Shown: positions 1,793 through 31,440, numbered from the stretch's first letter. The stretch is 64,000 bases of DNA from Candidatus Latescibacterota bacterium (GCA_965208125.1 OZ242320.1:3200001-3264000); one strand, 5' to 3'. Notes: generated by a model from the letters alone, not told the origin. A program made the numbers and translations.

Positions 1793-3553
1793 CTATCGCG
1801 AGCCATCGACTTGTACCGTAATGATGTCTATGCCGTGATATTTCCGGTGGCGCACAGAAGACGCGTAATGCCGCAACAGGCGGAACGATATCTCGCTTTC
1901 CTCCGGAACCTCGACCTGTTCGCTCAGGTACGCCAACTGGTCTTCGATGTTCTCCTCTTCGAAGACCGCCAGGAACTCTATCTCTATTGTCCCGTTGTTG
2001 GGACGCGCAAAGAGGATCAACTTCGGCGCATTATCAGTCGCGTAGTTCCCCCCCAACTGTAACAGACTCGACAGTGCCTCCTCACCGGCGGCACGTAGCC
2101 GCTCCGTCGAAGCATCATTCCAGCCAATCCTGGAGGCGAGGTCGCAGAGTAATGCGTCAATCCTGGGCAGAGCGGAGATGTCCAACGCGGTCTCCAGGCG
2201 TCTGCGCCGCGGGTTGGTCAACTCTGTGAATGAGGTCATCAGAATCGCAGCCAGAACGCCGGCTGTCATGCCGTTGCCGAGTGATGCGCCCCACGTCTGG
2301 CCCAGCAGGTCCAGGAGGATGTTCTGATTCTCCAGGCCCACCCCGATCGAGAGCGCCAGGCCCACCGCCAGAGCCTTTCGATGATCGAGACCGTCCTGAA
2401 AGATTGTCCTCATACCTTCCACGAAGAGCAGACCCATTATCATCAACAGAAATGCCCCCATGACGTGACTGGGAATTGTGAGCAGGATAGTCGCCGCCTT
2501 GGGTAAGAACGCCAATCCGAATAAGATGCCCCCAATAATATATCCAACGCTGCGTGCTGCGACTCCAGTGAGGGTGATGAGCGACACGCAGGAAGGCGAA
2601 TAGATTATAGTGGGTAGCGTTCCCGCAATTCCGGACAGTAGCGCGCCCAGTCCGTTGGTGTTGAGTGTACCTTGGACCAGACGGAAATCGGTCGCCTGTG
2701 GCCTGCGCCGCGAAACCTGTTGAATGACAACGCTATCGCCGCTGGTCTTGATTGCGACTACGAGACTCACAATCACAAACACTGGCAGAAGTGCCCAGAA
2801 CTCCGCACCCGGTCTCAGATCGAGCCCCGCCCATGCTGCGATATCCGGCAGGTCAAACCAGGGCGCTTCAATTACTCGCTGAGCATCGTACAGTCCGAAG
2901 TATGCGGCGACCGCGCAACCCGCCGCGATTCCGATAAGTGGCGACCACAGCCGCCAAATCCCCGAAGCGCGCAGTGCCAGTGCTACGGCGACGGTCAATG
3001 TCACTGCGGCACTGACTATACCCGCGGCCAGAGGCATCCCTTCGGGCACCTCTTTCAGCCTGTCGAATGCGATTGACATGACTGTGACTGCTATCAGCAT
3101 GAGCGCTGTACCTGAGACGACCGGCGTGATAATGCGCCGCAGCAGCGGAAGCCAGGCGGCCAGTGCGAACTGCATCAGCGACGACACGACGATGAGACTC
3201 GCCAGCATGGACAGATCGCCCTCCTTTAGTGCCAGGACAGAGATCGCTATGAAGTGGGGTCCGGCACCTGTCATGAGTACCTGCCCCGCTCCCAGCCGTC
3301 CGACCCGACCAGCCTGTAGAGCAGTAATAACGCCACCGATTATAAGAGAGGAAAAGACGGCCCACGATAGGTAGTGATCACTCTGGTCGGCCGCACGGAA
3401 GATAATGGTTACAAACAACACCGTGTTGGCCAGAGTAAGCATGACACCCTGAAAGGCGACGCCAATCGACACTAAGGGAGGACACTGCTCGTCAGGCTCG
3501 TATTGGATGGTTTCATTTTTGTGCGCTATACTCAAATCTAACTCCCAATTCAA
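1793..3553 (-). CDS. NCS2 (xanthine/uracil permease, SLC23) family transporter fused to a C-terminal degenerate RsbW/HATPase_c-like domain
   Basis: About 450 hydrophobic aa with NCS2 hallmarks (YEPDEQCPP, ITPVVSG, LITLTGVAAR) plus a ~135-aa soluble tail aligning by eye with the RsbW at 10240. The true start may be TTG 3535 (GGGAG RBS). Confidence 0.8.
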   Translation of the reverse strand: MNWELDLSIAHKNETIQYEPDEQCPPLVSIGVAFQGVMLTLANTVLFVTIIFRAADQSDHYLSWAVFSSLIIGGVITALQAGRVGRLGAGQVLMTGAGPHFIAISVLALKEGDLSMLASLIVVSSLMQFALAAWLPLLRRIITPVVSGTALMLIAVTVMSIAFDRLKEVPEGMPLAAGIVSAAVTLTVAVALALRASGIWRLWSPLIGIAAGCAVAAYFGLYDAQRVIEAPWFDLPDIAAWAGLDLRPGAEFWALLPVFVIVSLVVAIKTSGDSVVIQQVSRRRPQATDFRLVQGTLNTNGLGALLSGIAGTLPTIIYSPSCVSLITLTGVAARSVGYIIGGILFGLAFLPKAATILLTIPSHVMGAFLLMIMGLLFVEGMRTIFQDGLDHRKALAVGLALSIGVGLENQNILLDLLGQTWGASLGNGMTAGVLAAILMTSFTELTNPRRRRLETALDISALPRIDALLCDLASRIGWNDASTERLRAAGEEALSSLLQLGGNYATDNAPKLILFARPNNGTIEIEFLAVFEEENIEDQLAYLSEQVEVPEESEISFRLLRHYASSVRHRKYHGIDIITVQVDGSR

Positions 3554-4849: not shown

Positions 4850-6265
4850 TCACGCATGAGATAGATACGCTCGGAGGTGTTTGAGGGCGCGGCCATTGTC
4901 TATTGCTTCTCGCGTCTGTCGAATTGCATCGTGGGGATCGGCGGTGAAACCGAGTAGATGATCTGTGAGGGCTGCATTGAGTACAATGCGGTCGTAAACA
5001 GGGCCTTTTGCCCCAGAGAGAGCTGCAAGGCCGAGTTTGGCAAAGGTCTGTGCATCGACGGCATTGGGACGTGGATTTTGTGCGTAGTGAAAGCCATAAG
5101 TGGCGGGATTGATGTCGCAAGCATAAGTTTGATCGGCGCGAAAGCCCTGTGAAAAATTGATGGCGTTGCGCGTTTTATCGGTGGGTTTTCCCAGGCGCAG
5201 GGAAAAATGGCTGGTGCCCTCTTCCCCTTTGATAGCTACCGCGGATGTAAACCCGGTCTCGCGTGCGATTTTCAGAAGGGGGATTTCGTATCCCGAATGG
5301 TAATAACCGATGACAATGTGATTGCTGCCCGCACAGGTGAAGATTTGTTGCGCTTTTTCTGTGGCAGACCACGGAGGGCGTTTGCCTATGTGGGCGCGAA
5401 GGTCGCGGGCTGCGTAGGCCGCTGGCGCATATTCGCACTGGCTGATGTAGGCAAAGCCAATCTGGGGATTTTCGAGTCGTTCAGCTGCTTCTGAAAGCGA
5501 CAGATTGGTGCGGGCATTGAGGGCGTTGAGGATCTGTTCGTCAGTTACACCCCATTTGGGCGGCATGGTATCTACACCGTGAAGCACGGTGGGGCGACCG
5601 AGGGCTGCGCGCAGTGCTGCGACAAAAAGGGTGGGTTTGAAGTAGCGGGTTGAGCCATTGTAGGGTTGACCAAAGTGGGTGAGGTTATTCACATGCACTG
5701 TGTGGGCGCATTCGGGTGCAAAGGTCGAGTGCAAGTATCCGCGTACCTCGTCGTAGGATTCGAGGTTCATGCGCTGGCCAATCAGCGCGGCACCTTTGAG
5801 GCTGCCGCGAACGCTTTCGGTGAGAATGGCTTCGCACATAAGGCGCGTTTGGTCGTAGGTGAGATGACCTCCGGCGAGAATGGTTTTTAACGCGACAATG
5901 ACGGTTTGCTCTTCGGGTGATTCTGCGGGACAGTGATCTTTGAGGCCGAAGATGTATTGCAGGTCTGGTGAGAGGTGGGTTTGTAGAAGAGGGGTATATT
6001 GTTCAAAGGCATTGATTTCCGCCTGGCTCCAGGCTGTTTTAGGCGGGTAATTGCGCCGCAGACGCATGGCGGCAAAGAAGGATCCCATCTGGATAGCGGA
6101 GACTGGATGATGCGTTTTGTTTTGCAGGGTATTGAGGATGGTATCCAGTACGGGCTGAGGCTGTGGATCGCTGGATTTATTGCCCAGGGGACGAGATTGC
6201 GTGGGGCCTGTACACACACGCGCCTGGGCTTCGAGGACGAGGGGGTTGGGATCGAATAGTGGCAT
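4850..6265 (-). CDS. Anthranilate phosphoribosyltransferase-like protein (TrpD2/YbiB-type, non-canonical)
   Basis: Glycosyltransferase family 3 features (QMGSFFAAMRLR, GQPYNG, LHGVDTMPPK, IGKRP, KGEEG); lacks the TrpD GTGGD motif. Confidence 0.75.
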   Translation of the reverse strand: MPLFDPNPLVLEAQARVCTGPTQSRPLGNKSSDPQPQPVLDTILNTLQNKTHHPVSAIQMGSFFAAMRLRRNYPPKTAWSQAEINAFEQYTPLLQTHLSPDLQYIFGLKDHCPAESPEEQTVIVALKTILAGGHLTYDQTRLMCEAILTESVRGSLKGAALIGQRMNLESYDEVRGYLHSTFAPECAHTVHVNNLTHFGQPYNGSTRYFKPTLFVAALRAALGRPTVLHGVDTMPPKWGVTDEQILNALNARTNLSLSEAAERLENPQIGFAYISQCEYAPAAYAARDLRAHIGKRPPWSATEKAQQIFTCAGSNHIVIGYYHSGYEIPLLKIARETGFTSAVAIKGEEGTSHFSLRLGKPTDKTRNAINFSQGFRADQTYACDINPATYGFHYAQNPRPNAVDAQTFAKLGLAALSGAKGPVYDRIVLNAALTDHLLGFTADPHDAIRQTREAIDNGRALKHLRAYLSHA

Positions 6266-6452: not shown

Positions 6453-8003
6453 ATGTTTTTCAGGTGTTCTCGTTTCGCTTTTCTGATGGGACTGTTTCTG
6501 TCCCGTGATGCATTTGCACAGGAAGCTTTGGCTGGCGAGTCGTCTGGCGCGATACAGATGGTTATTGACGTATTGAATGCAGGCTTAAGTGCGATAACCA
6601 ATTTTCTATCTTCGATTATATTTTTTGATTTTGGCCTGGGTATTCCACTCGTCATTATTGTGCTCGTAGGTGGTGGCATTTATTATTCTTTTTATTGTCG
6701 CTGGATCTCTCTGCGCGGAATGAAACATTCGATTGATGTGATTCGCGGAGGGTATGACAATCCGGATCATCCCGGTGAAATTTCGCATTTTAAGGCTTTG
6801 ACCAGTGCGTTGTCTGCCACTGTGGGCCAGGGGAATATCGCGGGTGTAGCGATTGCAGTGAGTTCTGGGGGGCCTGGTGCTGTTTTCTGGATGATTGTCA
6901 CGGCTTTTTTTGGTATGGCGTCCAAGTTTGTATCCTGTACTCTGTCGGTGATGTACAGAAGAATCCATCCCGATGGGCGCGTGTCGGGTGGTCCGATGTA
7001 CTATCTGGAACAGGGCTTAAAAGAAAAAGGCCTTGGGATTTTGGGGCGCGTGATGGCCGTGATTTTTGCCTTGTTGACAGTTGGCGGTTCTCTGGGCATC
7101 GGCAATATGTTTCAGGTGAATCAGACAGTTGAAATGCTCGGCACTGTATCTGAGGAATTTAAGACCTATAACTGGGTTGTCGGGATTTTAATGGCGGGGG
7201 TAGTGGGCATTGTCATTAGTGGAGGTATCAAGCGCATTGGCACTGTCACAGCGGGCATTGTACCCTTCATGTGTGGGTTGTACGTGCTCACATCCTTTCT
7301 CATTATTCTCGCGCGTATTACCGAATTGCCCAATCTGATTGTGAATATCATTTCCCAGGCGTTTATACCTGAAGCCATATATGGTGGCTTCATGGGAGCC
7401 CTGGTTCAAGGAGTACGCAGGGCGGCTTTTTCCAACGAAGCGGGGTTGGGTTCTGCGGCATTTGCCCATGCGGCAGCCAAAACCGATGAACCCGTGCGTC
7501 AGGGGATAGTGGCGATGATTGGACCATTTATTGACACCGTTATTATATGTTTAATGACGGCATTGGTTTGTATGATTACGGGTGCGTATCTGTTGCCCGA
7601 ATTTCAAGGGCAAAGTGGATATCTCGTGGGAATCCAGATGACATCTGTGGCATTTGATTCGTTCGCGCCCGGGTCGCGTTATGTCATCGCAATTGTGGCA
7701 ATGTTCTTTGCATATACGACGGTGATCGCGTGGGCATATTACGGCGAGCGAGCGTGGGAATATCTTTTTGGATTGCGATCTACTCTGACGTATCGAATTG
7801 TTTTTGTGTGCTTTGTATTTATCGGGTCTGTCACCGCGCTAAAGAGTGTGGTCGATTTTTCTGACGCGATGATTTTTGCAATGGCGTTTCCGAATATTAT
7901 CGGCTGTATTATCATGAGTCCACAGATCAAAGACAGGCTCAACGAATACTGGGGGCGTTACAAGGCGGGTGAGATAAAGGCGTATCCGAGGAACACATAT
8001 TGA
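6453..8003 (+). CDS. Alanine/glycine:cation symporter (AGCS, AlsT-like)
   Basis: ALSATVGQGNIAGVA, GGPGAVFWM, GGPMYY, FSNEAGLGS, FIDTVIIC; start set at MFFRC after AGGA. Confidence 0.9.
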   Translation: MFFRCSRFAFLMGLFLSRDAFAQEALAGESSGAIQMVIDVLNAGLSAITNFLSSIIFFDFGLGIPLVIIVLVGGGIYYSFYCRWISLRGMKHSIDVIRGGYDNPDHPGEISHFKALTSALSATVGQGNIAGVAIAVSSGGPGAVFWMIVTAFFGMASKFVSCTLSVMYRRIHPDGRVSGGPMYYLEQGLKEKGLGILGRVMAVIFALLTVGGSLGIGNMFQVNQTVEMLGTVSEEFKTYNWVVGILMAGVVGIVISGGIKRIGTVTAGIVPFMCGLYVLTSFLIILARITELPNLIVNIISQAFIPEAIYGGFMGALVQGVRRAAFSNEAGLGSAAFAHAAAKTDEPVRQGIVAMIGPFIDTVIICLMTALVCMITGAYLLPEFQGQSGYLVGIQMTSVAFDSFAPGSRYVIAIVAMFFAYTTVIAWAYYGERAWEYLFGLRSTLTYRIVFVCFVFIGSVTALKSVVDFSDAMIFAMAFPNIIGCIIMSPQIKDRLNEYWGRYKAGEIKAYPRNTY

Positions 8004-8290
8004 TAACCCTTATTAAGACAGGTTGACCATCACAGGTGAACCCGTTTTGTTTGTACTAAAAAGGTGAAAGACGAGTAATATGTTATTTTACAACTTGTCG
8101 TGTATTGCGAAATAAGAGTTAAAAAAAGATTTGACTTTCGCATAGACAAGTAATATTTTAGCTGAACTTCTCAATTCCCTGCAAGAATACATCTCGCTAT
8201 GGGGCGCAATGGCTCTTGACCAAAATTTTCTGCTCGCGATGTGCAGCAAGAGCTTTCGTAGATAATTTTCACACATCAGGATATGGATCC

Positions 8291-8629
8291 ATGGAGATTA
8301 AAACCCAAAGAGAAAATGGCATTTTAATCGCGAACGTGAATGGCCGGGTTGATAGTGCCAATGCCCGCGAGTTCGAAAATGTGTTAAGCTCCGCAATCAG
8401 TGACGACGATACATGCGTGGTCGTAGATTTTGGGGGGCTTTCTTACATTAGTAGCTCGGGCCTGCGGGTCATTTTGCTGGTTGCCAAGTCACTCCGGAAT
8501 CGCAATGCGGAATTCGCGCTTTGCTCGCTTTCTGGTCCCATCGGAGAGGTCTTCAAAATCAGCGGATTTGACAAGATCATTTCGATCTACGACTCACAGG
8601 CAGAGGCTTGCGCCGCACTGGGCGGATAA
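8291..8629 (+). CDS. STAS-domain anti-sigma factor antagonist (RsbV/SpoIIAA-like)
   Basis: 112 aa; GRVD, VDFGGLSYISSSGLR (phosphoacceptor Ser), VFKISGFD. Confidence 0.9.
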   Translation: MEIKTQRENGILIANVNGRVDSANAREFENVLSSAISDDDTCVVVDFGGLSYISSSGLRVILLVAKSLRNRNAEFALCSLSGPIGEVFKISGFDKIISIYDSQAEACAALGG

Positions 8630-8651
8630 TTCGCTTTATCGCGTGTGCTCT

Positions 8652-8681
8652 CAAGCCATAGATGAGAGTTTGGCTTGTTTT
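8652..8681 (+). terminator. Possible intrinsic terminator after the STAS gene
   Basis: CAAGCCA...TGGCTTG followed by TTTT; large loop. Confidence 0.4.
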
Positions 8682-9073
8682 ATATATTGCACAGACCGAT
8701 TTAGACCCGCCATGCTTACTGTGTGCTTCCCCAATCGGGTTGCAAGCGTTATCTGACCCACCAATCCGATTTTCCTGTGTATCTGGTCCATAGATCACTT
8801 TCCAGGGTATTTCTCATGCCCCGTATATCCGCTTTCAAAACCTCCCGAATAACAGCCAACCTTCTACCGGGTGTCGCGCAGTTTGTCATTACAAAATGAC
8901 CGGTCTGGCATCTATCTACTTTAGTAACTCTCCCCGGAACCCTTTCCACACAAGTGAGTAAAAAAGATAGGTCCATTAAGCGAGGACTTTTGCTATCGCA
9001 ATCATTAGTGCTCCGATCAAATAATGCACAACATCAGTATAAGTAAGACACCATTAATCTAAGAGGCGCGTAT

Positions 9074-10243
9074 ATGAAAAAGGCGCAATACAAAATACTC
9101 GTGGTTGATGATGAACCCGATCTCGAACATCTCGTAAGGCAGCGCATGCGGCGCGATGTTCGCGCCGGGCACTACGAATTCGTCTTTGCCTACAACGGCA
9201 TTGAGGCTCTCGAGGTGCTGAACGCGGATCCGGATATCGATATGGTGCTCTCGGACATCAATATGCCGCGGATGGATGGCCTCACGTTGCTCGAACAGAT
9301 GCCGACAGTCGATCCAGACCTCCGGGCTGTCATTGTCTCGGCTTATGGCGATATGAAAAATATCCGTACGGCCATGAATCGGGGGGCGTTCGACTTTGTT
9401 ACCAAGCCCATTGATTTTCAGGATTTGAGGGTCACAATTGAGCGCACTTTGGAACACCTGCAGATGTGGCGCGAGGCTGTGGCTTCGCGGGATAAGTTGG
9501 TGGCACTGCAAAACGAGCTTCGCGTTGCCCATGATATGCAGCAGTCTATCCTGCCGAAGACCTTTCCAGACAAAGCTGAATATCAGGTGTTTGGAAACAT
9601 GGAGCCTGCACGCGAAGTGGGGGGCGATTTTTTTGATATTATCAATCTGGAAAACGACCGTGTCGGTCTGGCAATTGCCGATGTTTCTGACAAGGGTGTA
9701 CCGGCTGCTCTATTCATGATGTCCAGTCGCACGTTGATGAAAGGAGCTGCAATTGGCAGATCGAGTCCGGCCGAGGTGTTGAGCGAGGTCAATAGTCTCC
9801 TGCAGGAAGACAACGACGCAGCGATGTTTGTCACCGTGTTTTATGCCGAATATAACCCGGCGGATGGGTCGCTGTCTTACGCCAACGGAGGGCACAATCC
9901 CCCGGTCCTCGTCCACGCGGATGGCAGCTCGACTGTGCTCCCCCAGACCAACGGAATTGCTCTGGGTATCATGCCAGATGTTGAATACGAACAAAACTCA
10001 GTCACTCTGTCGCCTGGCGATGCCCTTGTGCTCTACACAGATGGTGTCACCGAAGCCATGAATGCCCAGAATGAGGAGTTTGAGATGGAGCGCTTGTGTG
10101 CGGTATTGTCCGAGTATTGTTCGTGTGATGTCCGCGAAATTAATCAGGCAGTTTTTCAAGCTGTGCAGGCATTTGCGGGTGATATGCCCCAGTTCGACGA
10201 TATGACCTGTATGACACTTTTTTGTAGAGAGATAGGAATATGA
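9074..10243 (+). CDS. Response-regulator receiver plus PP2C/SpoIIE phosphatase (RsbU/RsbY-like)
   Basis: REC: VVDDE, LSDINMP, SAYG, KP. PP2C: VGGDFFD, IADVSDKGVPAA, YTDGVTEA, DDMT. Confidence 0.92.
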   Translation: MKKAQYKILVVDDEPDLEHLVRQRMRRDVRAGHYEFVFAYNGIEALEVLNADPDIDMVLSDINMPRMDGLTLLEQMPTVDPDLRAVIVSAYGDMKNIRTAMNRGAFDFVTKPIDFQDLRVTIERTLEHLQMWREAVASRDKLVALQNELRVAHDMQQSILPKTFPDKAEYQVFGNMEPAREVGGDFFDIINLENDRVGLAIADVSDKGVPAALFMMSSRTLMKGAAIGRSSPAEVLSEVNSLLQEDNDAAMFVTVFYAEYNPADGSLSYANGGHNPPVLVHADGSSTVLPQTNGIALGIMPDVEYEQNSVTLSPGDALVLYTDGVTEAMNAQNEEFEMERLCAVLSEYCSCDVREINQAVFQAVQAFAGDMPQFDDMTCMTLFCREIGI

Positions 10244-10662
10244 AGGTGAAACGTTCTCTATGTATTGCGTCGGATCTCAACGAGTTGGAGCGGCTTCACG
10301 ATGCCGTGGCAGAACTCGGCGAGGCGGGGGATTGGCCCCCCGATCTCGTGTATCAGGTTGATCTCGTCCTCGAAGAATTGATCGTCAATACTGTGAACTA
10401 CGGGTACGACGACGATGCACGCCACGAGATTGAGGTCACGCTGACCTCGGATGAGGATGTCTTTACAGTTGAGATTATAGACGACGGGCATGCCTTCAAT
10501 CCACTGAGTGACGCTCCCGAACCAGACCTGGACGCAGGGATAGAAGATCGGCCGATAGGGGGGCTTGGCATCCATCTGATGCGCGTTATGATGGACGATG
10601 TACACTATCGCCGCGAGCAGAATAAGAATCATCTTACTCTGATTAAGCGGAGGAATGGATGA
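10240..10662 (+). CDS. Anti-sigma factor serine kinase (RsbW-like, HATPase_c)
   Basis: LEELIVNTVNYG (N box), DDGHAF (G1), GGLGIHLM (G2); ATGA overlap with the upstream gene. Confidence 0.92.
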   Translation: MKVKRSLCIASDLNELERLHDAVAELGEAGDWPPDLVYQVDLVLEELIVNTVNYGYDDDARHEIEVTLTSDEDVFTVEIIDDGHAFNPLSDAPEPDLDAGIEDRPIGGLGIHLMRVMMDDVHYRREQNKNHLTLIKRRNG

Positions 10663-11831
10663 GCAGTACGCGCTACAGTTGTGCGGTTTTATTACTCGTC
10701 TTGCTGATTGTAGAAATTCGCGCGGAAGAATCCGGAATCTCTGACGAGCGCATCCTTTTTGGGCAATCCGCCGCCTTTAGTGGCCCCGCTCAAGAATTGG
10801 GTAAGGACATGCGGATTGGTATTGAGGCAGCTTTTCAGGAGGCCAACGCGCGGGGCGGCGTGCATGGTCGGCAGCTAATATTGTTGTCTCTCGATGACGC
10901 ATACGAACCCGAAGCTGCCATCGCGAACACCCGTCGCCTGATTGAACAGGAAGGGATTTTTGCGCTGATCGGTGCTGTCGGTACGCCTACATCGCTCTCT
11001 GCCACCCCTGTGGCCGCAGCTGCTGACGTCCCCTACATCGCCCCCTTTACCGGTGCTGCCTTCTTGCGTGAAGATAGGTGGCAAAACGTGATTAATCTGC
11101 GGGCGTCTTATAATCAGGAGACCGAGGCTATGGTCGCTCGCTTGACCACAGACCTGGGTATTAAACGCATTGCCGTTATGTACCAGGATGACTCTTTTGG
11201 TCGGGCGGGTTATCGCGGCGTGCGGCAGGCACTTGAGCGGCGTAGCATGGAACCTGTGGCAATAGGGGTGTACCAGCGCAATACCACGGCGGTGAAGACA
11301 GGTCTGCTCAATCTGCATAGTGCAAACCCCGATGCAGTCATCCTGATAGGGGCCTACCGGCCGGTGGCAACGCTGATTGCCTGGGCGCGACACATAGGGA
11401 TGGATCCCGTATTCATGACCATCTCCTTTGTGGGCAGCAATGCGTTGGCCAGGGAACTCGGTCGCGGTGGTGCTGGGGTCTTCGTTACTCAGGTCGTACC
11501 TTTTCCAACAGATAACACTCTCCCCGTTGGTATTGCCTATCGTCGTGCCCTAACGGCCCACGCCCCCGAAGCGACTCCTGGTTTTGTCTCCTACGAAGGC
11601 TATTTGGCGGGCCGATTGGCTATCGCTGCCCTCGAACGCTGTGGGGAAGAGGTTAACCGCACCCGGTTTCTCAAGAGTTTGCGCGGTGCAGATACTATTG
11701 ATCTGGACGGCTTTGAACTTCGCTATGGCGCAAATGACAATCAGGGTTCAGATGCTGTCTTTATCACTGTGATTGGCACAGATGGCAGTTATCGCTCGAT
11801 CCAAACTCTGCGGGACGCAATAAAGCCATGA
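10659..11831 (+). CDS. Periplasmic binding protein, type I, LivK/branched-chain amino acid-like
   Basis: Signal peptide; GQSAAFSGP, GGVHGR, LDDAYEP, GAVGTPT, RASY; no ABC permease or ATPase adjacent. Confidence 0.88.
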   Translation: MSSTRYSCAVLLLVLLIVEIRAEESGISDERILFGQSAAFSGPAQELGKDMRIGIEAAFQEANARGGVHGRQLILLSLDDAYEPEAAIANTRRLIEQEGIFALIGAVGTPTSLSATPVAAAADVPYIAPFTGAAFLREDRWQNVINLRASYNQETEAMVARLTTDLGIKRIAVMYQDDSFGRAGYRGVRQALERRSMEPVAIGVYQRNTTAVKTGLLNLHSANPDAVILIGAYRPVATLIAWARHIGMDPVFMTISFVGSNALARELGRGGAGVFVTQVVPFPTDNTLPVGIAYRRALTAHAPEATPGFVSYEGYLAGRLAIAALERCGEEVNRTRFLKSLRGADTIDLDGFELRYGANDNQGSDAVFITVIGTDGSYRSIQTLRDAIKP

Positions 11832-13990
11832 TCGACATACTAAAACACCTGCTTGAAGGCCGCTACCGAATCTCGACGCAACTCTATTTGGGTATTGGTG
11901 GTGCTGTTGTCCTCACTATGGGGGCGAGTCTGGTTGGCTGGTTTTCCTTCAACAGCGTGGGTGACGCGCAAAGTCGCGTGAATGAAGGCAGTGTGCCCGG
12001 AATGGCAGCCGCATTTGGCGTCGCTCAACAAAGCGGTGCCATTGTAGCCGCAGCACCGCGTCTAATCGCTGCTGCAACGCCAGAGACATTTAATCAGGTT
12101 ATTGCCGAGATCGCCACAGAGCGAAACACTTTTGAAGCGCAGTTGGCGGCTCTGACGCAGCAAGGTGAAGAAGAGGAACGCTTCAGTCGCATTCGCGCCC
12201 AGGGTGGTACTCTGATCTCAAATATTGAGGCAATTGAAAGTTCAGTAGCCGAGCTTTTTGTGCTGCAAGAACGGAGTGAAGCCCTGCGTGCAGAACTGGT
12301 TAAAGTGCGCAACGAACTGGTTGGTGTCATGGTTCCGCTTATTGACGACCAGTTGTTCTACGCTGTGACGGGGTATCGCAATCTCGGCGAAGCACCCGCG
12401 TCGCCTGCACAGCACTTGTCGAGACAAGAGTTCGACCACTATCGCCATCTGGCTGCATTGCAAGCAGACGCCACCACAGCAATCCAGCTTCTGTCGAGTG
12501 CTTTCAATCTTTCAGATGCGCCCCTGATTGAGCCATTGCGGGAGCGATTTGAGGCAGCTAAAGACAGGATTGAATGGAGTTTGTCGGCACTCGGAACGGC
12601 CCGTGCGCGCAGTCAGATCGCTCCGATATGTGCCCGCCTGTACCAGTTGGGGCTGGGGGAAGAAGGGGGCTTCGACCTGCGTACACGAGAACTCGAACAC
12701 GTCGCGCACCAGCGGGACCTGCTCGCACGCAATCAGTCTCTTGCCCTTAATCTGGTCGCCGAAGCCGAAGGGCTGGTAAATGCTGCCCGCATAAGTGCCA
12801 AGGAAGCCACCCTCGCTTCCACACTGGCCATCGGCACCGGGCGCAGTCTTCTATTGGTTTTGAATGTGATCAGCATTACTGGCGCGTTGTTGATCGCCTA
12901 TTTATTCGTGGGACGCATGCTATTGCCCCGTCTCGAGCGACTATCCGAGCGGATGCGCCGCATGGCTGATGGCGACCTGGAGGGCAAGGTCGAGATCGGT
13001 GGGAACGACGAGGTGGCAGACATGGCTGCAGCCCTTGAAGTCTTTCGCCGCCACGCTCTGGAGGTGCAGCGCCTGAATCTGGTGGAAAAACTGGCAGAAG
13101 AGTTGCAATCTAAAAACGAAGAGCTCGAAAAGGTGCTGGAGGATTTGCAGGTGGCGCAGGACCAGATTGTTATGCGCGAGAAATTGGCCGCGCTCGGCGA
13201 ACTCACTGCAGGTGTGGCGCACGAGATCAAGAATCCGCTGAATTTTGTGAAAAACTTCTCGGAAGCGTCGGAAGAGCTCATGGAGGAACTGGTGGAGGTA
13301 CTGGACGAAAGTCCCGAAGCACTGAGCGAGGAGCAGCGCGAATTGGTTGACGAGATATGCCAGGACCTCACCGACAACATGGGGCGCATCCTCCAACACG
13401 GCACCCGCGCCGACCGCATTGTTCACGATATGCTCATGATGGGGCGCGGCTCTGGTGAGAAACAGTCCATTGAAATCAATAATCTGCTCGATGAACACGC
13501 CCGCCTTGCCTACCATAGCGCACGGGCGACTGACGCGGATTTCAACTTGACTATTGAGACGGATTTAGATCCAGATGCGGGGCAAATTGAGGTCGTGCCG
13601 CAGGACCTGGGGCGCGTCTTTCTCAACATGGTAGGCAATGCCTGTTACGCTACCGATGAGAAACGGCGTGCTATCGAAGCAGATAATGGTGAGACCTATT
13701 TTCCGACCCTGTCGCTGAGTACCAGACGCATGGATGATCGGATAGAGGTGAGCATAAGAGATAACGGGAATGGGATTCCGCCCGAGGTTGTCGATAAAAT
13801 TTTTAATCCTTTTTTTACGACCAAACCGACAGATAAGGGCACGGGTCTTGGCCTTGCCCTTTCCAATGATATTGTGCGCGAACACGGGGGAAATATCCGG
13901 GTGGTATCCGAACCCGGTGAATTCACCGAGATGATAGTAGAATTGCCTTTGGTGCCGCCCGCAGTGACGACTGAAGAGGTAGCGAGATAG
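11828..13990 (+). CDS. Sensor histidine kinase with TorS-like helical periplasmic domain, HAMP, HisKA and HATPase
   Basis: Two TM segments flanking a ~290-aa helical sensor; HAMP (GNDEVADMA); AGVAHEIKNP, NMVGNA, DNGNG, PFFTTK, GTGLGL. Confidence 0.9.
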   Translation: MIDILKHLLEGRYRISTQLYLGIGGAVVLTMGASLVGWFSFNSVGDAQSRVNEGSVPGMAAAFGVAQQSGAIVAAAPRLIAAATPETFNQVIAEIATERNTFEAQLAALTQQGEEEERFSRIRAQGGTLISNIEAIESSVAELFVLQERSEALRAELVKVRNELVGVMVPLIDDQLFYAVTGYRNLGEAPASPAQHLSRQEFDHYRHLAALQADATTAIQLLSSAFNLSDAPLIEPLRERFEAAKDRIEWSLSALGTARARSQIAPICARLYQLGLGEEGGFDLRTRELEHVAHQRDLLARNQSLALNLVAEAEGLVNAARISAKEATLASTLAIGTGRSLLLVLNVISITGALLIAYLFVGRMLLPRLERLSERMRRMADGDLEGKVEIGGNDEVADMAAALEVFRRHALEVQRLNLVEKLAEELQSKNEELEKVLEDLQVAQDQIVMREKLAALGELTAGVAHEIKNPLNFVKNFSEASEELMEELVEVLDESPEALSEEQRELVDEICQDLTDNMGRILQHGTRADRIVHDMLMMGRGSGEKQSIEINNLLDEHARLAYHSARATDADFNLTIETDLDPDAGQIEVVPQDLGRVFLNMVGNACYATDEKRRAIEADNGETYFPTLSLSTRRMDDRIEVSIRDNGNGIPPEVVDKIFNPFFTTKPTDKGTGLGLALSNDIVREHGGNIRVVSEPGEFTEMIVELPLVPPAVTTEEVAR

Positions 13991-14034
13991 AAGGGAGTGG
14001 AGGCACTGTTCCATCATTATGGGAGGGAATAGCT

Positions 14035-15417
14035 ATGCGAACGTTCTTGAATATCTTTATTTATCGCCGGTTTACCAATCTGGTGGGAAAAACACTCGCG
14101 GTACTCGGCCTCCTTGCGTGTGCTACAACCGCCGCGCACGCAGCGGTTGACGAGGAAACGCTGTTTGTCTTCAACACCTTCTCATTCCTTATTTGGGGCG
14201 TGTTGGTGATGTGGATGTGCGCGGGATTTACCATGCTCGAGTCAGGTTCTGTGCGCACCAAGAATGCCTCCATGATTTGCTTGAAGAATATCGGCCTTTA
14301 TTCTATTGCCGGGCTTGCCTACTATTTCATCGGCTATAATCTCATGTACGTCGATGTGGAGAGTGTGATCGGTTCATTTAAGTTTTTATACGGACCGTCA
14401 GGCGATGAGATTGCTTTGATAGCGGGCAATGAGGCCGCGAAGGCGGCAGTGGTTAAGAACGGCTATTCCACCATGTCCGACTGGTTTTTCCAGATGGTCT
14501 TTGTCGCGACCACTGCGTCCATTGTCTCTGGAGCTCTGGCCGAACGAGTCAAGATATGGTCCTTTTTCCTTTTTATTCTGGTGCTGACAGCGATTATCTA
14601 TCCCGTCGTCGGTGCGTGGACCTGGGGCGAGGGATGGCTAAGTGCGATGGGGTTCAAAGATTTTGCTGGTTCGACCATCGTGCATAGCACCGGTGGTTGG
14701 GCCGCTCTTGCCGGTGCGATAGTCGTTGGGCCGAGGTTCGGCAAATTCCGCAGTGATGGTACAGTTAAATCCACGCCTCCCTCAAATATTTTGATAGTAA
14801 CATTGGGCGTCTTCATCCTGTGGTTCGGGTGGTTTGGCTTCAACGGCGGGTCGCAACTGGCATTGGGAAGCGCGCTTGACGTGGTCGCGATGAGTCATGT
14901 GCTGGTCAATACCAATTTGGGAGCTGCAGCCGGTGTTATGGCAGCTCTCTTAGTTTCTCGTCCCATCCTGGGACGCATAGATCTGTTTGCAGGGCTGAAT
15001 GGCGCAATCGCCGGTCTGGTGTCGATTACTGCGGGACCTGATATTGTTGAGCACTACTGGGCGGTCGTTATTGGTGCCATTGGCGCGGTTTTGTGTACTG
15101 CGGGGATCAAGTTTCTGGAAAAAATCAAGCTGGATGATGTGGTAGGGGCGATACCGGCTCACTTGTTCGCCGGTATCTGGGGCACCATAGCGGTCTGCAT
15201 CGCTGGCGGTGGCAACTTAGGCGTACAATTGATCGGCATCGTAGCGATTGGCGCATTCGTGTTTGTGACTTCGTGGGTGTTGTGGCGCGCGATTGATATG
15301 ACGTTGAGTGTGCGCGTGTCGCGCCAGGTCGAGCAATTGGGGCAGGATGTTGGAGAATTGGGAATTGATGCCTATCCCGAATTTGTGCTTATGCCAGAAG
15401 AAGATGATGAGGAATAA
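14035..15417 (+). CDS. amt: Ammonium transporter (Amt family)
   Basis: GFTMLESG, FFQMVF, DFAGSTIVH, WFGWFGFNGGS, DDVVGAIPAH (twin His intact). Confidence 0.93.
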   Translation: MRTFLNIFIYRRFTNLVGKTLAVLGLLACATTAAHAAVDEETLFVFNTFSFLIWGVLVMWMCAGFTMLESGSVRTKNASMICLKNIGLYSIAGLAYYFIGYNLMYVDVESVIGSFKFLYGPSGDEIALIAGNEAAKAAVVKNGYSTMSDWFFQMVFVATTASIVSGALAERVKIWSFFLFILVLTAIIYPVVGAWTWGEGWLSAMGFKDFAGSTIVHSTGGWAALAGAIVVGPRFGKFRSDGTVKSTPPSNILIVTLGVFILWFGWFGFNGGSQLALGSALDVVAMSHVLVNTNLGAAAGVMAALLVSRPILGRIDLFAGLNGAIAGLVSITAGPDIVEHYWAVVIGAIGAVLCTAGIKFLEKIKLDDVVGAIPAHLFAGIWGTIAVCIAGGGNLGVQLIGIVAIGAFVFVTSWVLWRAIDMTLSVRVSRQVEQLGQDVGELGIDAYPEFVLMPEEDDEE

Positions 15418-16358
15418 GCGCTGGCAAGAATCTTCTGCATATCCCCGGGGGGGCGTGCTCGAAAGACCATTTCTTCTTTTGTTACGGGATGCACAAATGT
15501 CAATTGAGTCGCGTGGAGCATCTGTCGATTAGTTTGTGCGAGCAGGTGGGCTGCTCTCCTGCGAAACAGGGGGGCAATCCCAGACAGCCGCTCCTCGCGT
15601 CCGCCGTATAGCAGGTCGCCAAATACAGGACGATTGAGATGCGCCAGATGTACTCTGATCTGGTGTGTACGACCCGTTTCCAGCGCGAGAGATAGCAAAG
15701 AGAGAAAATCGTAACGCGCCCTTATTTTCCAGTGCGTTGCCGCAAATCTCCCATTCTGAGAAACAGCCATTCGCTTTCGATCTTTTGGATGTCTTCCCAC
15801 AGGTGCTTCTACGCGCCCTTCATCTGCTTCAAAGCCCCCCCATATCAACGCGAGATAACGCCGCTCCATCGCTCGAGCTTCCAACTGGGCAGCCAATCCG
15901 CGGTGCCCTTCATCACTTTTGGCAACGACCATTAGCCCCGATGTGTCTTTGTCCAACCGATGTACAATACCCGGTCGCAAAACCCCATTGATACCCGATA
16001 AATGCGTGCAATGTGACAGGAGGGCATTGACGAGTGTTCCCGAGGTCACGGCCCCTGCAGGGTGTACTATCATACCCGCAGGTTTGTCGAGTACCAGCAC
16101 ATGATCATCTTCAAAAAAAACATCCAGAGGAATATCCTCTGGATTAATTGCACTATCTATTGGAGGGGGTATATCTATTGTGATGTTATCGCCAGCCACC
16201 ACCCGATAGCTCGACCGCGTCGTCTTTTCATTGAGGCAAACAGCACCCTCGGCAATTAGTTTTTGAAGGCGTGAACGCGAAAGTTCGGGGCGTTGATCGG
16301 CCAAATAGCGGTCCAGACGCTGGCCTTCATGTTGAGGCAGAATTTTTAGATGAATCAC
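15372..16358 (-). CDS. rluD: RluA/RluD family 23S rRNA pseudouridine synthase
   Basis: S4 domain (QRLDRYLA, SRSRLQKLI), VHRLDKDTSG, GRTHQIRVH; start estimated at GTG 16358. Confidence 0.9.
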   Translation of the reverse strand: MIHLKILPQHEGQRLDRYLADQRPELSRSRLQKLIAEGAVCLNEKTTRSSYRVVAGDNITIDIPPPIDSAINPEDIPLDVFFEDDHVLVLDKPAGMIVHPAGAVTSGTLVNALLSHCTHLSGINGVLRPGIVHRLDKDTSGLMVVAKSDEGHRGLAAQLEARAMERRYLALIWGGFEADEGRVEAPVGRHPKDRKRMAVSQNGRFAATHWKIRARYDFLSLLSLALETGRTHQIRVHLAHLNRPVFGDLLYGGREERLSGIAPLFRRRAAHLLAQTNRQMLHATQLTFVHPVTKEEMVFRARPPGDMQKILASAYSSSSSSGISTNSG

Positions 16359-28495: not shown

Positions 28496-29206
28496 ATGAG
28501 CATCTTTCAACGTCTCTTCAGTGTGGGCAAGGCCGAAGTCCATTCGGCCATTGACAAATTTGAAGATCCGATAAAAATGACCGAACAGGGTATCCGCGAT
28601 CTGAAAAATGATCTCAATAGCGCGATGACCAGTCTGGCTGAGGTCAAAGGGCAGGCCATTCGATTGCGAAAGCAGGCCGAAGATAACAAAAAGGCGTCTG
28701 CTGACTGGGAGCGTAAGGCCATGGTTTTGCTCCAAAAAGCCCAGAGCGGTGAGCTGGATGCTGGGGAAGCAGACCGGTTGGCAACCGAAGCCCTCAGTCG
28801 CAAATCAGAGGCCGATAACCGCATTTCTCAGTTTGAGCAGGATGCCCAGATGCAGGAAGATATGGCCACGAAGCTTCAAAGTCAGGTGGAGAAACTCAAA
28901 TCTACCATTGCAACACACGAAAATGAACTCATTTCACTGCGCGCGCGGGCAAAAACAGCCGCTGCGACGAAGAAAATCAACAAGCAACTCGCCAAAGTCG
29001 ATTCGTCTGGTACAATTGCCATGCTCGAGCGCATGAAAGAACGGGTTGAAGAAGATGAATCGCTCTCGCAGGCTTATGGCGAAATAGCCGGTGAATCCAA
29101 GAGCGTTGATGAGGAGATTGACGCGGCCCTGAGTACTTCATCGAGCGGCACAGATCAACGCCTTGCTGAATTGAAAGCAAAGATGGGGATGACTTCGAAA
29201 GACTGA
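28496..29206 (+). CDS. pspA: PspA/IM30 (ESCRT-III-like) family protein
   Basis: MSIFQRL amphipathic N-terminus, EDPIKM.EQ.IRD, coiled coils, LAELKAKMG. Confidence 0.92.
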   Translation: MSIFQRLFSVGKAEVHSAIDKFEDPIKMTEQGIRDLKNDLNSAMTSLAEVKGQAIRLRKQAEDNKKASADWERKAMVLLQKAQSGELDAGEADRLATEALSRKSEADNRISQFEQDAQMQEDMATKLQSQVEKLKSTIATHENELISLRARAKTAAATKKINKQLAKVDSSGTIAMLERMKERVEEDESLSQAYGEIAGESKSVDEEIDAALSTSSSGTDQRLAELKAKMGMTSKD

Positions 29207-29287
29207 TCATAGGTGTGCCTGTGGGTGAGGCACTGGCGCACCCGTTCTATGCTGTCGCAGAAGGTTCATGGGTTGCATGGAGAGAAA

Positions 29288-29833
29288 ATGAATTGGAATC
29301 CTTTTAAGAAAAAGAAACAAGAACCCGAAGCTCTCGATCCCCTCAATGTTACGCTGTCCGATCTCAAGCAGGGTTATGTCCTCGACTACGATCTCAAAAC
29401 CTGGCAGGTTACAGCGCAGCATTATTACGATTACGAAGGTGATCGCGTGGATGAATGGGAACTTACCTGCGGCGATGATGTGGCATATCTCGAGCGGTCA
29501 GAAGACGATAGTATTTCCTGGGCCCTGACGCGCAAGATCCCCCTTTCCGATATTGAGGGCGATATCCGTGGGCATATGCGCGACCACGACAATGATGATC
29601 CTCCAGATGAAGTTAGATGCCAGGGGATTATGTTCTATGGCGTATCGTCAGCCGTTGGATCTTTTTACAAAGATGGCGGGGACGAGGGACAAAAGTTTAT
29701 CATCTGGAATTATCTCGACGAGTCGGAGGAACACACCCTATCCATTGAGCAATGGGACGAAGACGCTTTTGATGCTGCGGTGGGTGAGATTGTCGAAGAA
29801 TATCAATTTAGCAATATCCTGCCAGTAGATTAA
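29288..29833 (+). CDS. DUF4178-like protein
   Basis: Acidic beta-rich protein (YDLKTWQV, DEWEL, YLE, WNYLD, LSIEQWD); start MNWNPF after GGAG. Confidence 0.65.
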   Translation: MNWNPFKKKKQEPEALDPLNVTLSDLKQGYVLDYDLKTWQVTAQHYYDYEGDRVDEWELTCGDDVAYLERSEDDSISWALTRKIPLSDIEGDIRGHMRDHDNDDPPDEVRCQGIMFYGVSSAVGSFYKDGGDEGQKFIIWNYLDESEEHTLSIEQWDEDAFDAAVGEIVEEYQFSNILPVD

Positions 29834-29838
29834 TATCT

Positions 29839-31374
29839 TTACTCAAACCCCCATTCTGATTTCCGATAGTATCGATCTACTGTCGGCTCCATTTCTGTGC
29901 TGACCTCAATTGCATGTTTTTCATCGAACATGCCCTTCCAGAAGTGCAACATTCCCCGCATTGCTTCTGCATCCAAAAATTGCGTTTCAATATTCTCAAA
30001 AGTGAGTTGCCGCATTCGGTGAATGAGGTCCTCTTCGTATATTTCTTCGGATTTCATTCCCAATACCCATCCCCAATCGCCCATCGTCGGTATATAGGTG
30101 TGATAGGGGATTGTCGAAAAGTTAGCGTCTGCCATCGTGCGTTCAATGCACAGAAATGCAAGGCGCGCGTTAAGAGGACTCGATGCCTGGGTTACCAGTA
30201 CGCCGTCGGGTGTTAAGTGACGCGCACACAGGCGATAGAATTCCCGCGAATACAATCTGGCGAGGTCCGGTCCTTTGGGATCGGGCAAGTCGATGATGAT
30301 GATATTGAATAATGCTTCTGAACGCGTCAAGAATGCGCCCGCATCGCCAATTACCACGTTTACACGCGGGTCGTCCAGTGCCCGCGTATTCGCTTCTACA
30401 AAAACCGGGTGTGTGCGCGCCAGATCGATTATCGCTTTGTCTAAATCTACCAGCGTGACTGCTTGTACATCTGCATATTTTACGACTTCGCGCACAGCCA
30501 GTCCATCCCCCCCGCCTAAGATGAGTACGTTCTTCCGCGACCCCGATAGTTTCATAGCCGGATGTACCAGCGATTCGTGATAGCGTTCTTCGTCATAGGT
30601 GCTGAATTGCACATTGCCATTTAAGTGCAGCCAGTGATGGCCTTTCCATTCTGTTATGACAATGCGTTGATAAGCGGTCTGATCTTGATAGACCACGCGG
30701 TCGCGATACCGGCTTTGTTCACCCCATATTACAATGGGACGGATATAAAGTCCCAATACCAGAAGGCCTGTGCCCAGGATCCAGAATGCCGTCAATAGCA
30801 GCCAGCGACGCGCCAATAAGTGTCGATATTGCCACAGTAATACCGATGCTACGACAAAGTTAATTGCGCCCAGTGCCAGCGGTGTGTACGTCAGGCCCAA
30901 TTCTGGCAATAAAAAAAAGGCGAACAATAGTCCGCCGATCAACGCGCCAAAATAGTCTTTTTCCATTACTGAGGCGATATTGGTGCGCAAATCCTGATAC
31001 GCTTCGTTCATGCGCGCGACCAGCGGAATTTCCATGCCGATTAGCACGCCGATGGCAAAAGCATAGATATAGATGAAAACGCCTGCCGATAACACAAATG
31101 CCGATCCAAAATACGCTACGACCGCACAGGTGGCGCACAGGACTGAGAGATAAAATTCGATTGCGATAAAGCGGTCCAGCAACCTGTCCGTCAACAATCG
31201 GCTCCATCGGCTGCCCAATCCCATGGCAAATAACATCAGCGACATGAGTACCGCCCACTGCAATGTCGTGTTGCCCAATAGATAGCTCGCCAGTGTTGAC
31301 AATGTAAATTCCGCTACAATGCCGGCACATCCCGTGGCGAATATACAGGCTTTTAAGAGATAGCTCTGTCGCAT
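29839..31374 (-). CDS. speE: Polyamine aminopropyltransferase (membrane-anchored spermidine synthase)
   Basis: About 7 N-terminal TM helices, then QFSTYDEERYHESLVHP, LILGGGDG, DLPDP, LYSREFY. Confidence 0.9.
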   Translation of the reverse strand: MRQSYLLKACIFATGCAGIVAEFTLSTLASYLLGNTTLQWAVLMSLMLFAMGLGSRWSRLLTDRLLDRFIAIEFYLSVLCATCAVVAYFGSAFVLSAGVFIYIYAFAIGVLIGMEIPLVARMNEAYQDLRTNIASVMEKDYFGALIGGLLFAFFLLPELGLTYTPLALGAINFVVASVLLWQYRHLLARRWLLLTAFWILGTGLLVLGLYIRPIVIWGEQSRYRDRVVYQDQTAYQRIVITEWKGHHWLHLNGNVQFSTYDEERYHESLVHPAMKLSGSRKNVLILGGGDGLAVREVVKYADVQAVTLVDLDKAIIDLARTHPVFVEANTRALDDPRVNVVIGDAGAFLTRSEALFNIIIIDLPDPKGPDLARLYSREFYRLCARHLTPDGVLVTQASSPLNARLAFLCIERTMADANFSTIPYHTYIPTMGDWGWVLGMKSEEIYEEDLIHRMRQLTFENIETQFLDAEAMRGMLHFWKGMFDEKHAIEVSTEMEPTVDRYYRKSEWGFE

Positions 31375-31415
31375 AAAAAATAAACAACTCGGCGAGTTTT
31401 CAGCCCGCCGAGTTG
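31375..31415 (-). terminator. Terminator-like hairpin directly before the speE ATG
   Basis: Minus strand CAACTCGGCG-ggctgaaaact-CGCCGAGTTG-TTTATTTTTT-ATG. Confidence 0.6.
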
Positions 31416-31440
31416 GAGAGATTCAACACAACTTTCTTTT

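Follow-up and report, generated by a model that had tools for sequence, protein, structure and literature searches.

A conserved partner-switching cassette without a sigma gene, linked to ammonium and NCS2 transporters, in Candidatus Latescibacterota

Partner switching is usually read as a means of freeing a sigma factor. The DNA analysed here, a stretch of 64,000 nucleotides from a Candidatus Latescibacterota bacterium (the window; G000:C1:3200001-3264000 of the complete 5.75-Mb genome, GCA_965208125.1, OZ242320.1), encodes a partner-switching system of another composition. Five signalling genes, for a STAS protein, a receiver-phosphatase protein (REC-PP2C), an RsbW-type kinase, a periplasmic LivK-type binding protein (SBP) and a TorS-like histidine kinase (HK), are conserved as a single translationally coupled cassette that has no sigma gene; its input is presumably periplasmic, and transporters are its sole recurrent companions. 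We propose that the cassette is a self-contained, sigma-less partner switch whose likeliest output is the post-translational control of nitrogen-compound transporters, a proposal to which we give about even odds.

Organization of the cassette

A reading made earlier from the sequence of the window alone (the sequence-only reading) placed the five signalling genes and an ammonium transporter gene (amt) in one run, and all six were recovered at the coordinates that it gave. These genes, with the intervening spacer and the NCS2 permease discussed below, are as follows.

8291..8629, + strand: STAS-only protein of the anti-sigma-antagonist type, 112 aa (Pfam STAS, 73.7 bits; NCBIfam TIGR00377, 80.3 bits, cut-off 53.45)
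8630..9073, no strand: non-coding spacer between STAS and REC-PP2C, 445 bp (genus-conserved, no Rfam match)
9074..10243, + strand: REC-PP2C with SpoIIE-family output, 389 aa (Response_reg, 85.1 bits; SpoIIE, 189.2 bits)
10240..10662, + strand: RsbW/SpoIIAB-type serine kinase, 140 aa (HATPase_c_2, 103.5 bits)
10659..11831, + strand: periplasmic LivK-type binding protein (SBP) with signal peptide (Peripla_BP_6, 202.6 bits)
11828..13990, + strand: TorS-like HK (TorS_sensor_domain, 30.4 bits, cut-off 27; HAMP, 37.3 bits; HisKA, 35.7 bits; HATPase_c, 81.8 bits)
14035..15417, + strand: ammonium transporter Amt, 'marine subtype' (Ammonium_transp, 325.3 bits; TIGR03644, 514.4 bits)
1793..3553, - strand: NCS2-family permease, 586 aa, whose last 145 residues are encoded by 1793-2230 (Xan_ur_permease, 128.7 bits)

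The three ATGA overlaps of that reading are present, at the REC-PP2C/RsbW, RsbW/SBP and SBP/HK junctions, and the ATG of amt lies 44 nt past the HK stop codon. The STAS gene, which it had listed in the same run, is not overlapped, and 445 bp separate it from REC-PP2C.

Sequence features of the signalling proteins

The components of a partner switch are found in the cassette: a STAS protein with a conserved serine, a HATPase_c_2 kinase with N, G1 and G2 boxes, and a phosphatase of the PP2C/SpoIIE type; a cognate group-3 sigma factor is not encoded alongside. The catalytic motifs, described as intact from the window alone, proved to be so. The serine of the YISS[SA]GLR motif (S54/S55) is invariant in 25 of 25 STAS orthologues, and on its sequence the STAS protein is the switch protein, with a predicted phospho-acceptor serine in YISSSGLR, the version of the motif in the window. 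In RsbW, residues E46, N50, D81 and G107-G108-x-G110 (the N, G1 and G2 boxes) are kept in 17 of 17 orthologues. The remaining motifs were read from the translations: DD, D61 and K111 in the receiver, GGDF, DVSDKG, TDG and DDMT in the PP2C domain, and HEIKNPL, an N box and DNGNG/GTGLG in the HK. REC-PP2C is the sole response regulator of the cassette and is presumed to be the phosphatase of phosphorylated STAS under the control of the HK.

The HK consists of two transmembrane segments around a TorS-like periplasmic domain of about 300 aa, followed by HAMP, HisKA and HATPase domains, with no REC or HPt domain detected by Pfam. Its residues 19-438 match the NCBIfam TorS model TIGR02956 with 158.9 bits, below the equivalog cut-off of 676.5. 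The SBP gene always lies directly 5' of the HK gene in related loci, and the SBP is presumed to be the ligand receptor of the HK. Its closest solved relative is 4kv7 (E 3.5e-71). No LivHMGF-type ABC genes were identified by Pfam among the flanking open reading frames (ORFs), in agreement with the earlier description of an SBP lacking ABC partners. When aligned to the leucine-binding protein of E. coli, the SBP shows a Ser at the position of the amino-group-binding Glu226, a lead that the ligand may be something other than an alpha-amino acid.

Conservation of the cassette within and beyond the phylum

All 20 genomes of the genus have orthologues of the SBP and the HK sensor, as do the sister family and one further family of the class, and the HK sensor was matched in 76 of the 168 genomes of the phylum. 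The window proteins were mapped by tblastn onto 38 class loci of about 19 kb each, which together with four loci from metagenome-assembled genomes (MAGs) titled as other phyla make up the 42 cassette loci considered here. The order REC-PP2C-RsbW-SBP-HK is colinear across the 38 loci except for L072 and five distant loci of the g21/g31 lineages (HK 42-44% identical), in which RsbW is missing between REC-PP2C and SBP. REC-PP2C occurs in 37 of the 38 class loci (L072 being without it) and is colinear in 41 of all 42. In the sister family (f2), a Na+/H+ exchanger-CBS gene fills the gap between STAS and REC-PP2C in six of eight loci.

Five loci carrying other phylum labels were tested, and the genomes of four of them contain an HK-sensor orthologue (Alphaproteobacteria and Opitutales, 68% identity each; Dehalococcoidia, 56%; Acidimicrobiales, 52%); none was found in the fifth genome, from Vicinamibacterales. 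All four loci show STAS-REC-PP2C-RsbW-SBP-HK in this order. The Opitutales locus (L173) repeats the layout of the window, with amt 3' of the HK and an NCS2 gene upstream, and the Alphaproteobacteria locus (L172) has GlnE, then amt (as two ORFs), then STAS and the cassette. Neither of the other two includes amt: the Dehalococcoidia locus (L174) has an MFS gene 3' of the HK, and GS-like, GATase_6 and DAO genes lie near the Acidimicrobiales cassette (L175). The neighbours across phyla (GlnE in L172; GS-like, GATase_6 and DAO in L175) share a nitrogen theme, which fits an output in nitrogen-compound transport.

A FastTree phylogeny of concatenated REC-PP2C, SBP and HK sequences was built from 41 loci and the window, its support values not having been inspected; L072 was left out because it is without REC-PP2C. 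The Opitutales and Alphaproteobacteria loci are nested among the Latescibacterota clades, and family labels are not followed. The phylum labels are those of MAG titles and may be affected by misbinning, a risk that is smallest for loci on contigs of 1.66-3.94 Mb. Sequencing-run shares of 0.23-0.32 were not used as evidence of habitat.

Association of the ammonium transporter with STAS

The Amt of the window passes the TIGR03644 model marginally (514.4 bits against a cut-off of 514). The linkage of amt, for which a neighbourhood survey had been suggested, held in part: amt is present on the fetched stretch, at most 9 kb away, in 30 of the 38 class loci and two of the four cross-phylum loci, in varied gene orders, and it is not obligatory. 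By lineage, it was found in 8/10 loci of the genus, 7/8 of f2, 3/3 of g20/g23, 0/1 of f3, 11/11 of g25 and 1/5 of g21/g31; in G010 it lies 14 kb downstream, and in G026 270 kb away. The linkage is frequent, far above what chance synteny would keep.

In 13 loci STAS and amt are immediate neighbours, in three arrangements: amt-STAS in all 11 g25 loci, RsbW-STAS-amt in L090 and amt-STAS-REC-PP2C in L172. The g25 pair is co-directional, about 60 bp apart, and convergent with the rest of the cassette. As a control, TIGR03644 was searched in 201 sampled genomes of Pseudomonadota, the phylum of the Alphaproteobacteria MAG, which gave 58 matches above the cut-off; the 30 best were taken as control loci with 1.5 kb on either side, and their 117 flanking ORFs were scanned. 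A P-II gene lies beside amt in 25 of these 30 loci and a STAS gene in none, and no separate P-II gene was found in the 42 cassette loci. Where the two genes adjoin, STAS occupies the slot beside the marine-type Amt that is normally filled by GlnK. A complex prediction for Amt and STAS scored 0.01 against a mark of 0.32, which counts neither for nor against an interaction.

The window contains no P-II gene, as the sequence-only reading had stated; the genome has three (at 189 kb, 192 kb and 368 kb) and three amt genes. Two canonical glnK-amt pairs stand in tandem at G000:C1:189419-193957, so ordinary ammonium uptake under PII control is retained beside the orphan marine-type Amt, which is 27-28.5% identical to the two glnK-linked Amts. 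The suggested PII-independent system thus applies to the Amt copy of the window and not to the genome at large, and in one lineage a PII-like domain is found on the STAS protein itself. In the Dehalococcoidia-titled MAG, the cassette STAS and an N-terminal PII-like domain form a single ORF (L174:5419-6054), residues 9-95 of which match the P-II structure 5ovo_B (E 1.1e-8) and residues 120-220 the SpoIIAA structure 1th8_B (E 1.5e-7). There are 46 full-length PII-STAS relatives (212-279 aa), 16 of them with both PF00543 and PF01740 among precomputed annotations, and their STAS halves carry the YISSAGLR and ISGFD motifs, as does the STAS of the window. Among 301 sampled Chloroflexota genomes the full fusion occurs in G168 only. 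A metagenome scan with the PII-STAS alignment returned 36 loci, all of them generic RsbW-STAS pairs matched in the STAS half only, and because of this limit it adds no genomic context for the fusion.

AmtB sequesters GlnK at the membrane, and other systems are known to use sensors of the Amt type. By analogy, Amt might be an input of the cassette, an ammonium or methylammonium sensor that would sequester STAS at the membrane, the cassette then integrating two signals. The adjacency of amt and STAS, the replacement in the PII slot and the fusion of STAS to a PII-like domain in L174 would all fit such a role. A sensor pair dedicated to extracytoplasmic signals is already part of the cassette, however, and several cassette loci are without amt; we regard an input role as quite improbable.

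In f2, the orthologous amt gene lies inside a circularly permuted ATP-grasp/amt/Alpha-E/transglutaminase operon (L065:14021-18790 and six other loci), where amt and Alpha-E overlap by 4 bp. An ammonium channel is thereby joined, for no evident reason, with a predicted amide-ligase system.

The NCS2 permease and its RsbW-fold tail

The core of the NCS2 protein matches Xan_ur_permease over residues 32-407 (cut-off 27), and TIGR00801 (146.9 bits) and pbuX (181.2 bits) both below their NCBIfam cut-offs. The sequence-only reading had called this protein a fusion of NCS2 with a HATPase domain, and the fusion is real, with a tail that is not seen by Pfam and emerges from fold and profile comparison. 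Tested as a single sequence, the tail gave no Pfam match and a BLASTP E value of 1.3 against RsbW. Its AlphaFold2 model (pLDDT 84.1) has UsfX, RsbW and SpoIIAB as its best solved look-alikes in Foldseek (E 1.5e-7 to 2.5e-6), with TM-scores of 0.62-0.85 (0.63-0.85 to 8ih8, 6m37, 1l0o and 1th8), and the top matches are all STAS-binding anti-sigma kinases. Alignment of the tail with the cassette RsbW family by hhalign gave 77.7% probability (E 1.9e-5, 118 columns), and HATPase_c_2 is weakly matched by eight of 38 aligned tail members (best E 2.2e-4). The ATP-binding N box Asn and the G1 and G2 glycines are not conserved across these 38 tails. Since RsbW keeps N50, D81 and GGxG and the tails do not, we consider the tail to be a pseudokinase of the anti-sigma type. 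On its modelled fold it is a candidate docking site for STAS, which gives the earlier idea of a transport output a concrete handle.

The tail family comprises at least 545 clusters at 50% identity (phmmer, E <=0.001, among 1.84 billion representatives), the tail being mostly C-terminal in proteins of 570-595 aa. A scan of species-representative genomes identified 539 relatives, the best 80 of which come from MAGs titled Latescibacterota, Dehalococcoidia/Chloroflexota, Vicinamibacterales, Acidimicrobiales, Alphaproteobacteria, Opitutales and Terriglobia. A tail-bearing NCS2 gene lies directly 3' of the HK in all five g21/g31 loci, the operon of which is without a separate RsbW, and within 6 kb of the cassette in L072-L074, L173 and the window. 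Among the 168 genomes of the phylum, 69 contain both HK and tail, seven the HK alone, one the tail alone (70 with the tail in total) and 91 neither, a table that overstates the association and is not an independent test of it, because the genomes are related. G000 itself encodes five tail-bearing NCS2 permeases, at 1793-3553 of the window and on C1 near 388706, 1960054, 2246104 and 4182113, one of the five with a short open frame.

The genes next to tail-bearing NCS2 genes include those for a class-III aminotransferase, a pyridoxal-phosphate-dependent decarboxylase, DUF1330, a creatininase and a sulfatase, the first four of which suggest small nitrogenous substrates. In L118 a Peripla_BP_6 gene lies directly 5' of the permease gene.

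Some side observations concern the same genes. In Chloroflexota-titled MAGs, tail-bearing NCS2 genes occur in tandem, in two or three copies. Peripla_BP_6 proteins without ABC partners recur beside tail-bearing NCS2 and Na+/H+ exchanger-CBS genes (L118:7355-10432, L070), and a 60% paralogue of the window SBP is accompanied by a glyoxalase-type dioxygenase and an FAA hydrolase (L070:5527-11969).

Sigma factors

Of the 24 sigma-70 family genes in the genome, eight have region 3; the window contains none of the 24, as had been noted from its sequence. The same holds for homologous loci: with the 24 sigma ORFs as tblastn queries, no group-3 sigma gene was found in the window or the 42 cassette loci. 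Matches were obtained in five loci, all of f2, and represent the same 212-aa sigma factor of the extracytoplasmic function (ECF) type, without region 3, encoded 3-5 kb from STAS. The cassette is inherited without a sigma gene. Elsewhere in the genome, partner-switch genes adjoin hpf/hprK, Hpt/REC proteins, a hybrid kinase or an MFS gene, and no sigma gene was found beside them in the 3.3-kb loci examined.

According to the classical scheme, RsbW would sequester a distant group-3 sigma factor and STAS would free it, amt and NCS2 being members of the regulon or simply neighbours. RsbW does keep all kinase and anti-sigma-type motifs, like the sigma-binding RsbW and SpoIIAB, and the eight region-3 sigma genes elsewhere in the genome would provide possible targets; both observations weigh against direct control of transporters. 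The region 8121-15500 is covered by RNA-library contigs of about 95% identity, which run across the STAS/REC-PP2C and HK/amt junctions; they do not contradict transcriptional control, and they are only a weak hint of expression, since DNA may be present in libraries of this kind and a contig does not establish a single transcript. On the other side, the cassette occurs in MAGs of five phylum labels, each recipient of which would need a compatible sigma factor, the group-3 gene is missing from every locus, the other partner-switch genes of the genome are likewise not beside sigma genes, and both the RsbW-fold tail of NCS2 and the PII-STAS fusion are left unexplained. We consider a distant sigma factor an unlikely target.

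Proposed mechanism and its alternatives

The sequence-only reading joined the SBP, HK, REC-PP2C, STAS and RsbW into one signalling chain, and the conserved, coupled cassette bears this out. Domain logic, translational coupling and co-inheritance make a chain from SBP to STAS very probable. In this chain, the SBP would load a small ligand and dock on the TorS-like sensor domain of the HK, which would phosphorylate the receiver domain of REC-PP2C; receiver phosphorylation would set the activity of PP2C on phosphorylated STAS. The RsbW-type kinase would oppose PP2C by phosphorylating STAS on its conserved serine. Unphosphorylated STAS would then quit RsbW for other partners, the best candidates for which are the RsbW-fold tail of NCS2 permeases and the marine-type Amt. 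Because the ATP-binding motifs are absent from it, the NCS2 tail could hold STAS without phosphorylating it. We infer all binding and phosphotransfer steps, the ligand and the sign of regulation from the sequences.

Direct control of transporters is favoured because the cassette travels without a sigma gene, because transporters are its only recurrent companions, because one of these carries a putative STAS-binding fold unable to phosphorylate, because STAS replaces GlnK beside an Amt subtype otherwise accompanied by GlnK, and because a PII-like domain is fused to the cassette STAS in one lineage. Taken further, free STAS may be a detachable transporter subunit that sits on NCS2 pseudokinase tails and replaces GlnK on the marine-type Amt, and the cassette a mobile controller of nitrogen-compound uptake; we advance this tentatively, as possible rather than probable.

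Several observations, in addition to the intact RsbW motifs and the region-3 sigma genes, weigh against direct transporter control. The transporters can be separated from the cassette. An amt orthologue is absent from G077 and G102, and in G019 only a remnant (residues 325-460) is left behind the HK; together with G026, L174 and L175, these cases indicate that amt is dispensable for the cassette. A STAS gene lies near a tail-bearing NCS2 gene in only two of 80 loci (tblastn), and near only one of the five tail-bearing permeases of G000. No STAS, HATPase_c_2 or SpoIIE domain was identified by Pfam among 101 neighbouring ORFs of 11 tail loci, a set obtained from 137 ORFs of 13 loci by omitting two high-GC loci, the permeases and three giant ORFs. 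A common habitat or common ancestry could account for the co-occurrence of HK and tail. Assignments to other phyla depend on MAG binning, L173 being on a 107-kb contig. Finally, every interaction proposed here is putative.

The G019 remnant (G019:C1:1708913-1709320) consists of the last 136 amt codons; in this species of the genus, amt has been lost naturally and the cassette is intact.

The dispensability of amt also fits another explanation, in which STAS acts on some other cytoplasmic target (an enzyme, a cyclase or a general regulator) and the transporters lie nearby through shared nutrient physiology or joint transfer, without contacting STAS. The accessory genes do vary by lineage (Amt, NCS2, Na+/H+ exchanger-CBS, MFS, ATP-grasp/Alpha-E/transglutaminase), and non-sigma partner switches described in excerpts of two papers act on enzymes (PMC13555669, PMC8457831). 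Such a target would not account for an immediate amt-STAS adjacency that recurs in three gene orders and parallels the association of this Amt subtype with glnK, nor for an NCS2 tail that folds as a STAS-binding protein, and we doubt it, holding it to be unlikely.

Should STAS dock on the NCS2 tail or on Amt, as direct transporter control would have it, an outside signal would act directly on secondary transporters and ammonium channels through a phosphorylation gate. A function would thereby be provided for a permease family of at least 545 clusters at 50% identity, as well as a non-PII answer to the regulation of GlnK-less Amt channels, and the PII-STAS fusion would be a testable bridge between two signalling worlds. 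If a distant sigma factor were the target, the cassette would be an ordinary RsbY-like cascade with an unusual sensor.

Other features of the window

The 445-bp spacer (8630-9073) has a mean column identity of 84% over five loci of the genus, about the level of coding sequence, with long invariant blocks. Its sole small ORF is broken by a 10-bp indel in relatives, and Rfam gave no match on the window or on 8000-9200. The spacer may be a leader or regulatory region. A promoter and terminator scan of 7900-15700 did not rise above shuffled sequences (7 vs 6.3 and 5 vs 8.1, respectively).

On the 5' side of the cassette, Pfam identified an AGCS symporter, a TrpD-like protein, a sulfatase and the NCS2 permease. 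The AGCS symporter had been counted among the possible outputs in the sequence-only reading; its gene is present in only two of the 38 related loci, and it was rejected as an output for this reason. A beta-ribofuranosylaminobenzene 5'-phosphate synthase-family protein and a TrpD/YbiB-like glycosyl-transferase-3 protein (629-1681 and 4850-6265) flank the NCS2 and sulfatase genes, and the synthase-like gene still adjoins NCS2 in L092-L095. Farther along the window (28496-32655), PspA and DUF4178 genes adjoin those for a 511-aa spermidine-synthase-like protein and a 404-aa DUF350 protein (Pfam only).

Comparison with known systems

A literature search, with supplements outside its scope, turned up no paper that describes the cassette, links amt with STAS or reports an anti-sigma-like tail on an NCS2 permease. 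A close parallel in logic is the RsbK-RsbY-RsbV-RsbW-SigB system of Bacillus cereus, in which an HK drives a REC-PP2C that dephosphorylates a STAS protein, RsbW opposes it, and the sigma gene in the locus is the output. The cassette shares the order from HK to REC-PP2C to STAS, opposed by an RsbW kinase. Unlike the Bacillus system, it has no linked sigma gene, its HK is a non-hybrid TorS-like protein accompanied by a periplasmic SBP, and its linked genes are transporters.

As in TorT-TorS, the gene of a binding protein adjoins that of a kinase with a TorS-type helical sensor (PF21689) and a HAMP domain. The SBP, however, belongs to Peripla_BP_6, the HK is without the REC and HPt domains of TorS, and the regulator is a phosphatase rather than an OmpR-type DNA binder. 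Because it has no hybrid modules, another binding-protein family and no TorR, the cassette is not a member of the TorS/TorT group.

The likeness to GlnK-AmtB lies in a 112-aa cytoplasmic signalling protein encoded beside Amt (in 13 loci). STAS differs in its unrelated fold and in serine phosphorylation as opposed to uridylylation and 2-oxoglutarate, and its contact with Amt is putative; with no adjacent P-II gene, the amt of the window is not part of a GlnK-AmtB pair.

Partner switches with non-sigma outputs have been published (PMC8256260, PMC13555669, PMC6482189), and the comparisons that follow apply to the excerpts of these papers. In the HptB-HsbR-HsbA system of Pseudomonas aeruginosa, HsbR fuses REC, PP2C and kinase, the input comes through Hpt, and the outputs are flagellar and RpoS regulators (PMC6482189, PMC8256260). 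There too, a two-component input sets STAS phosphorylation and the output is not a dedicated sigma factor of the operon; in the cassette, by contrast, REC-PP2C and kinase are separate and the outputs are presumed to be transporters. HenR/All4160 of Anabaena is a phosphatase-controlled STAS switch in which STAS is fused to its glycosyltransferase effector (PMC13555669). The phosphatase-controlled switch is common to both systems, as is a non-sigma effector, which is only presumed for the cassette. The cassette STAS, unlike that of All4160, is free, and it is the presumed effector NCS2 that bears an RsbW-like partner domain.

SLC26/SulP proteins are 7+7 transmembrane transporters with a C-terminal STAS domain, as described in the excerpted text of PMC8256260. 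NCS2 resembles them in being a 7+7 transmembrane transporter with a cytoplasmic C-terminal domain drawn from the STAS/anti-sigma pair. The arrangement is mirrored, in that the NCS2 permease carries the half that resembles an anti-sigma kinase and the STAS protein is free.

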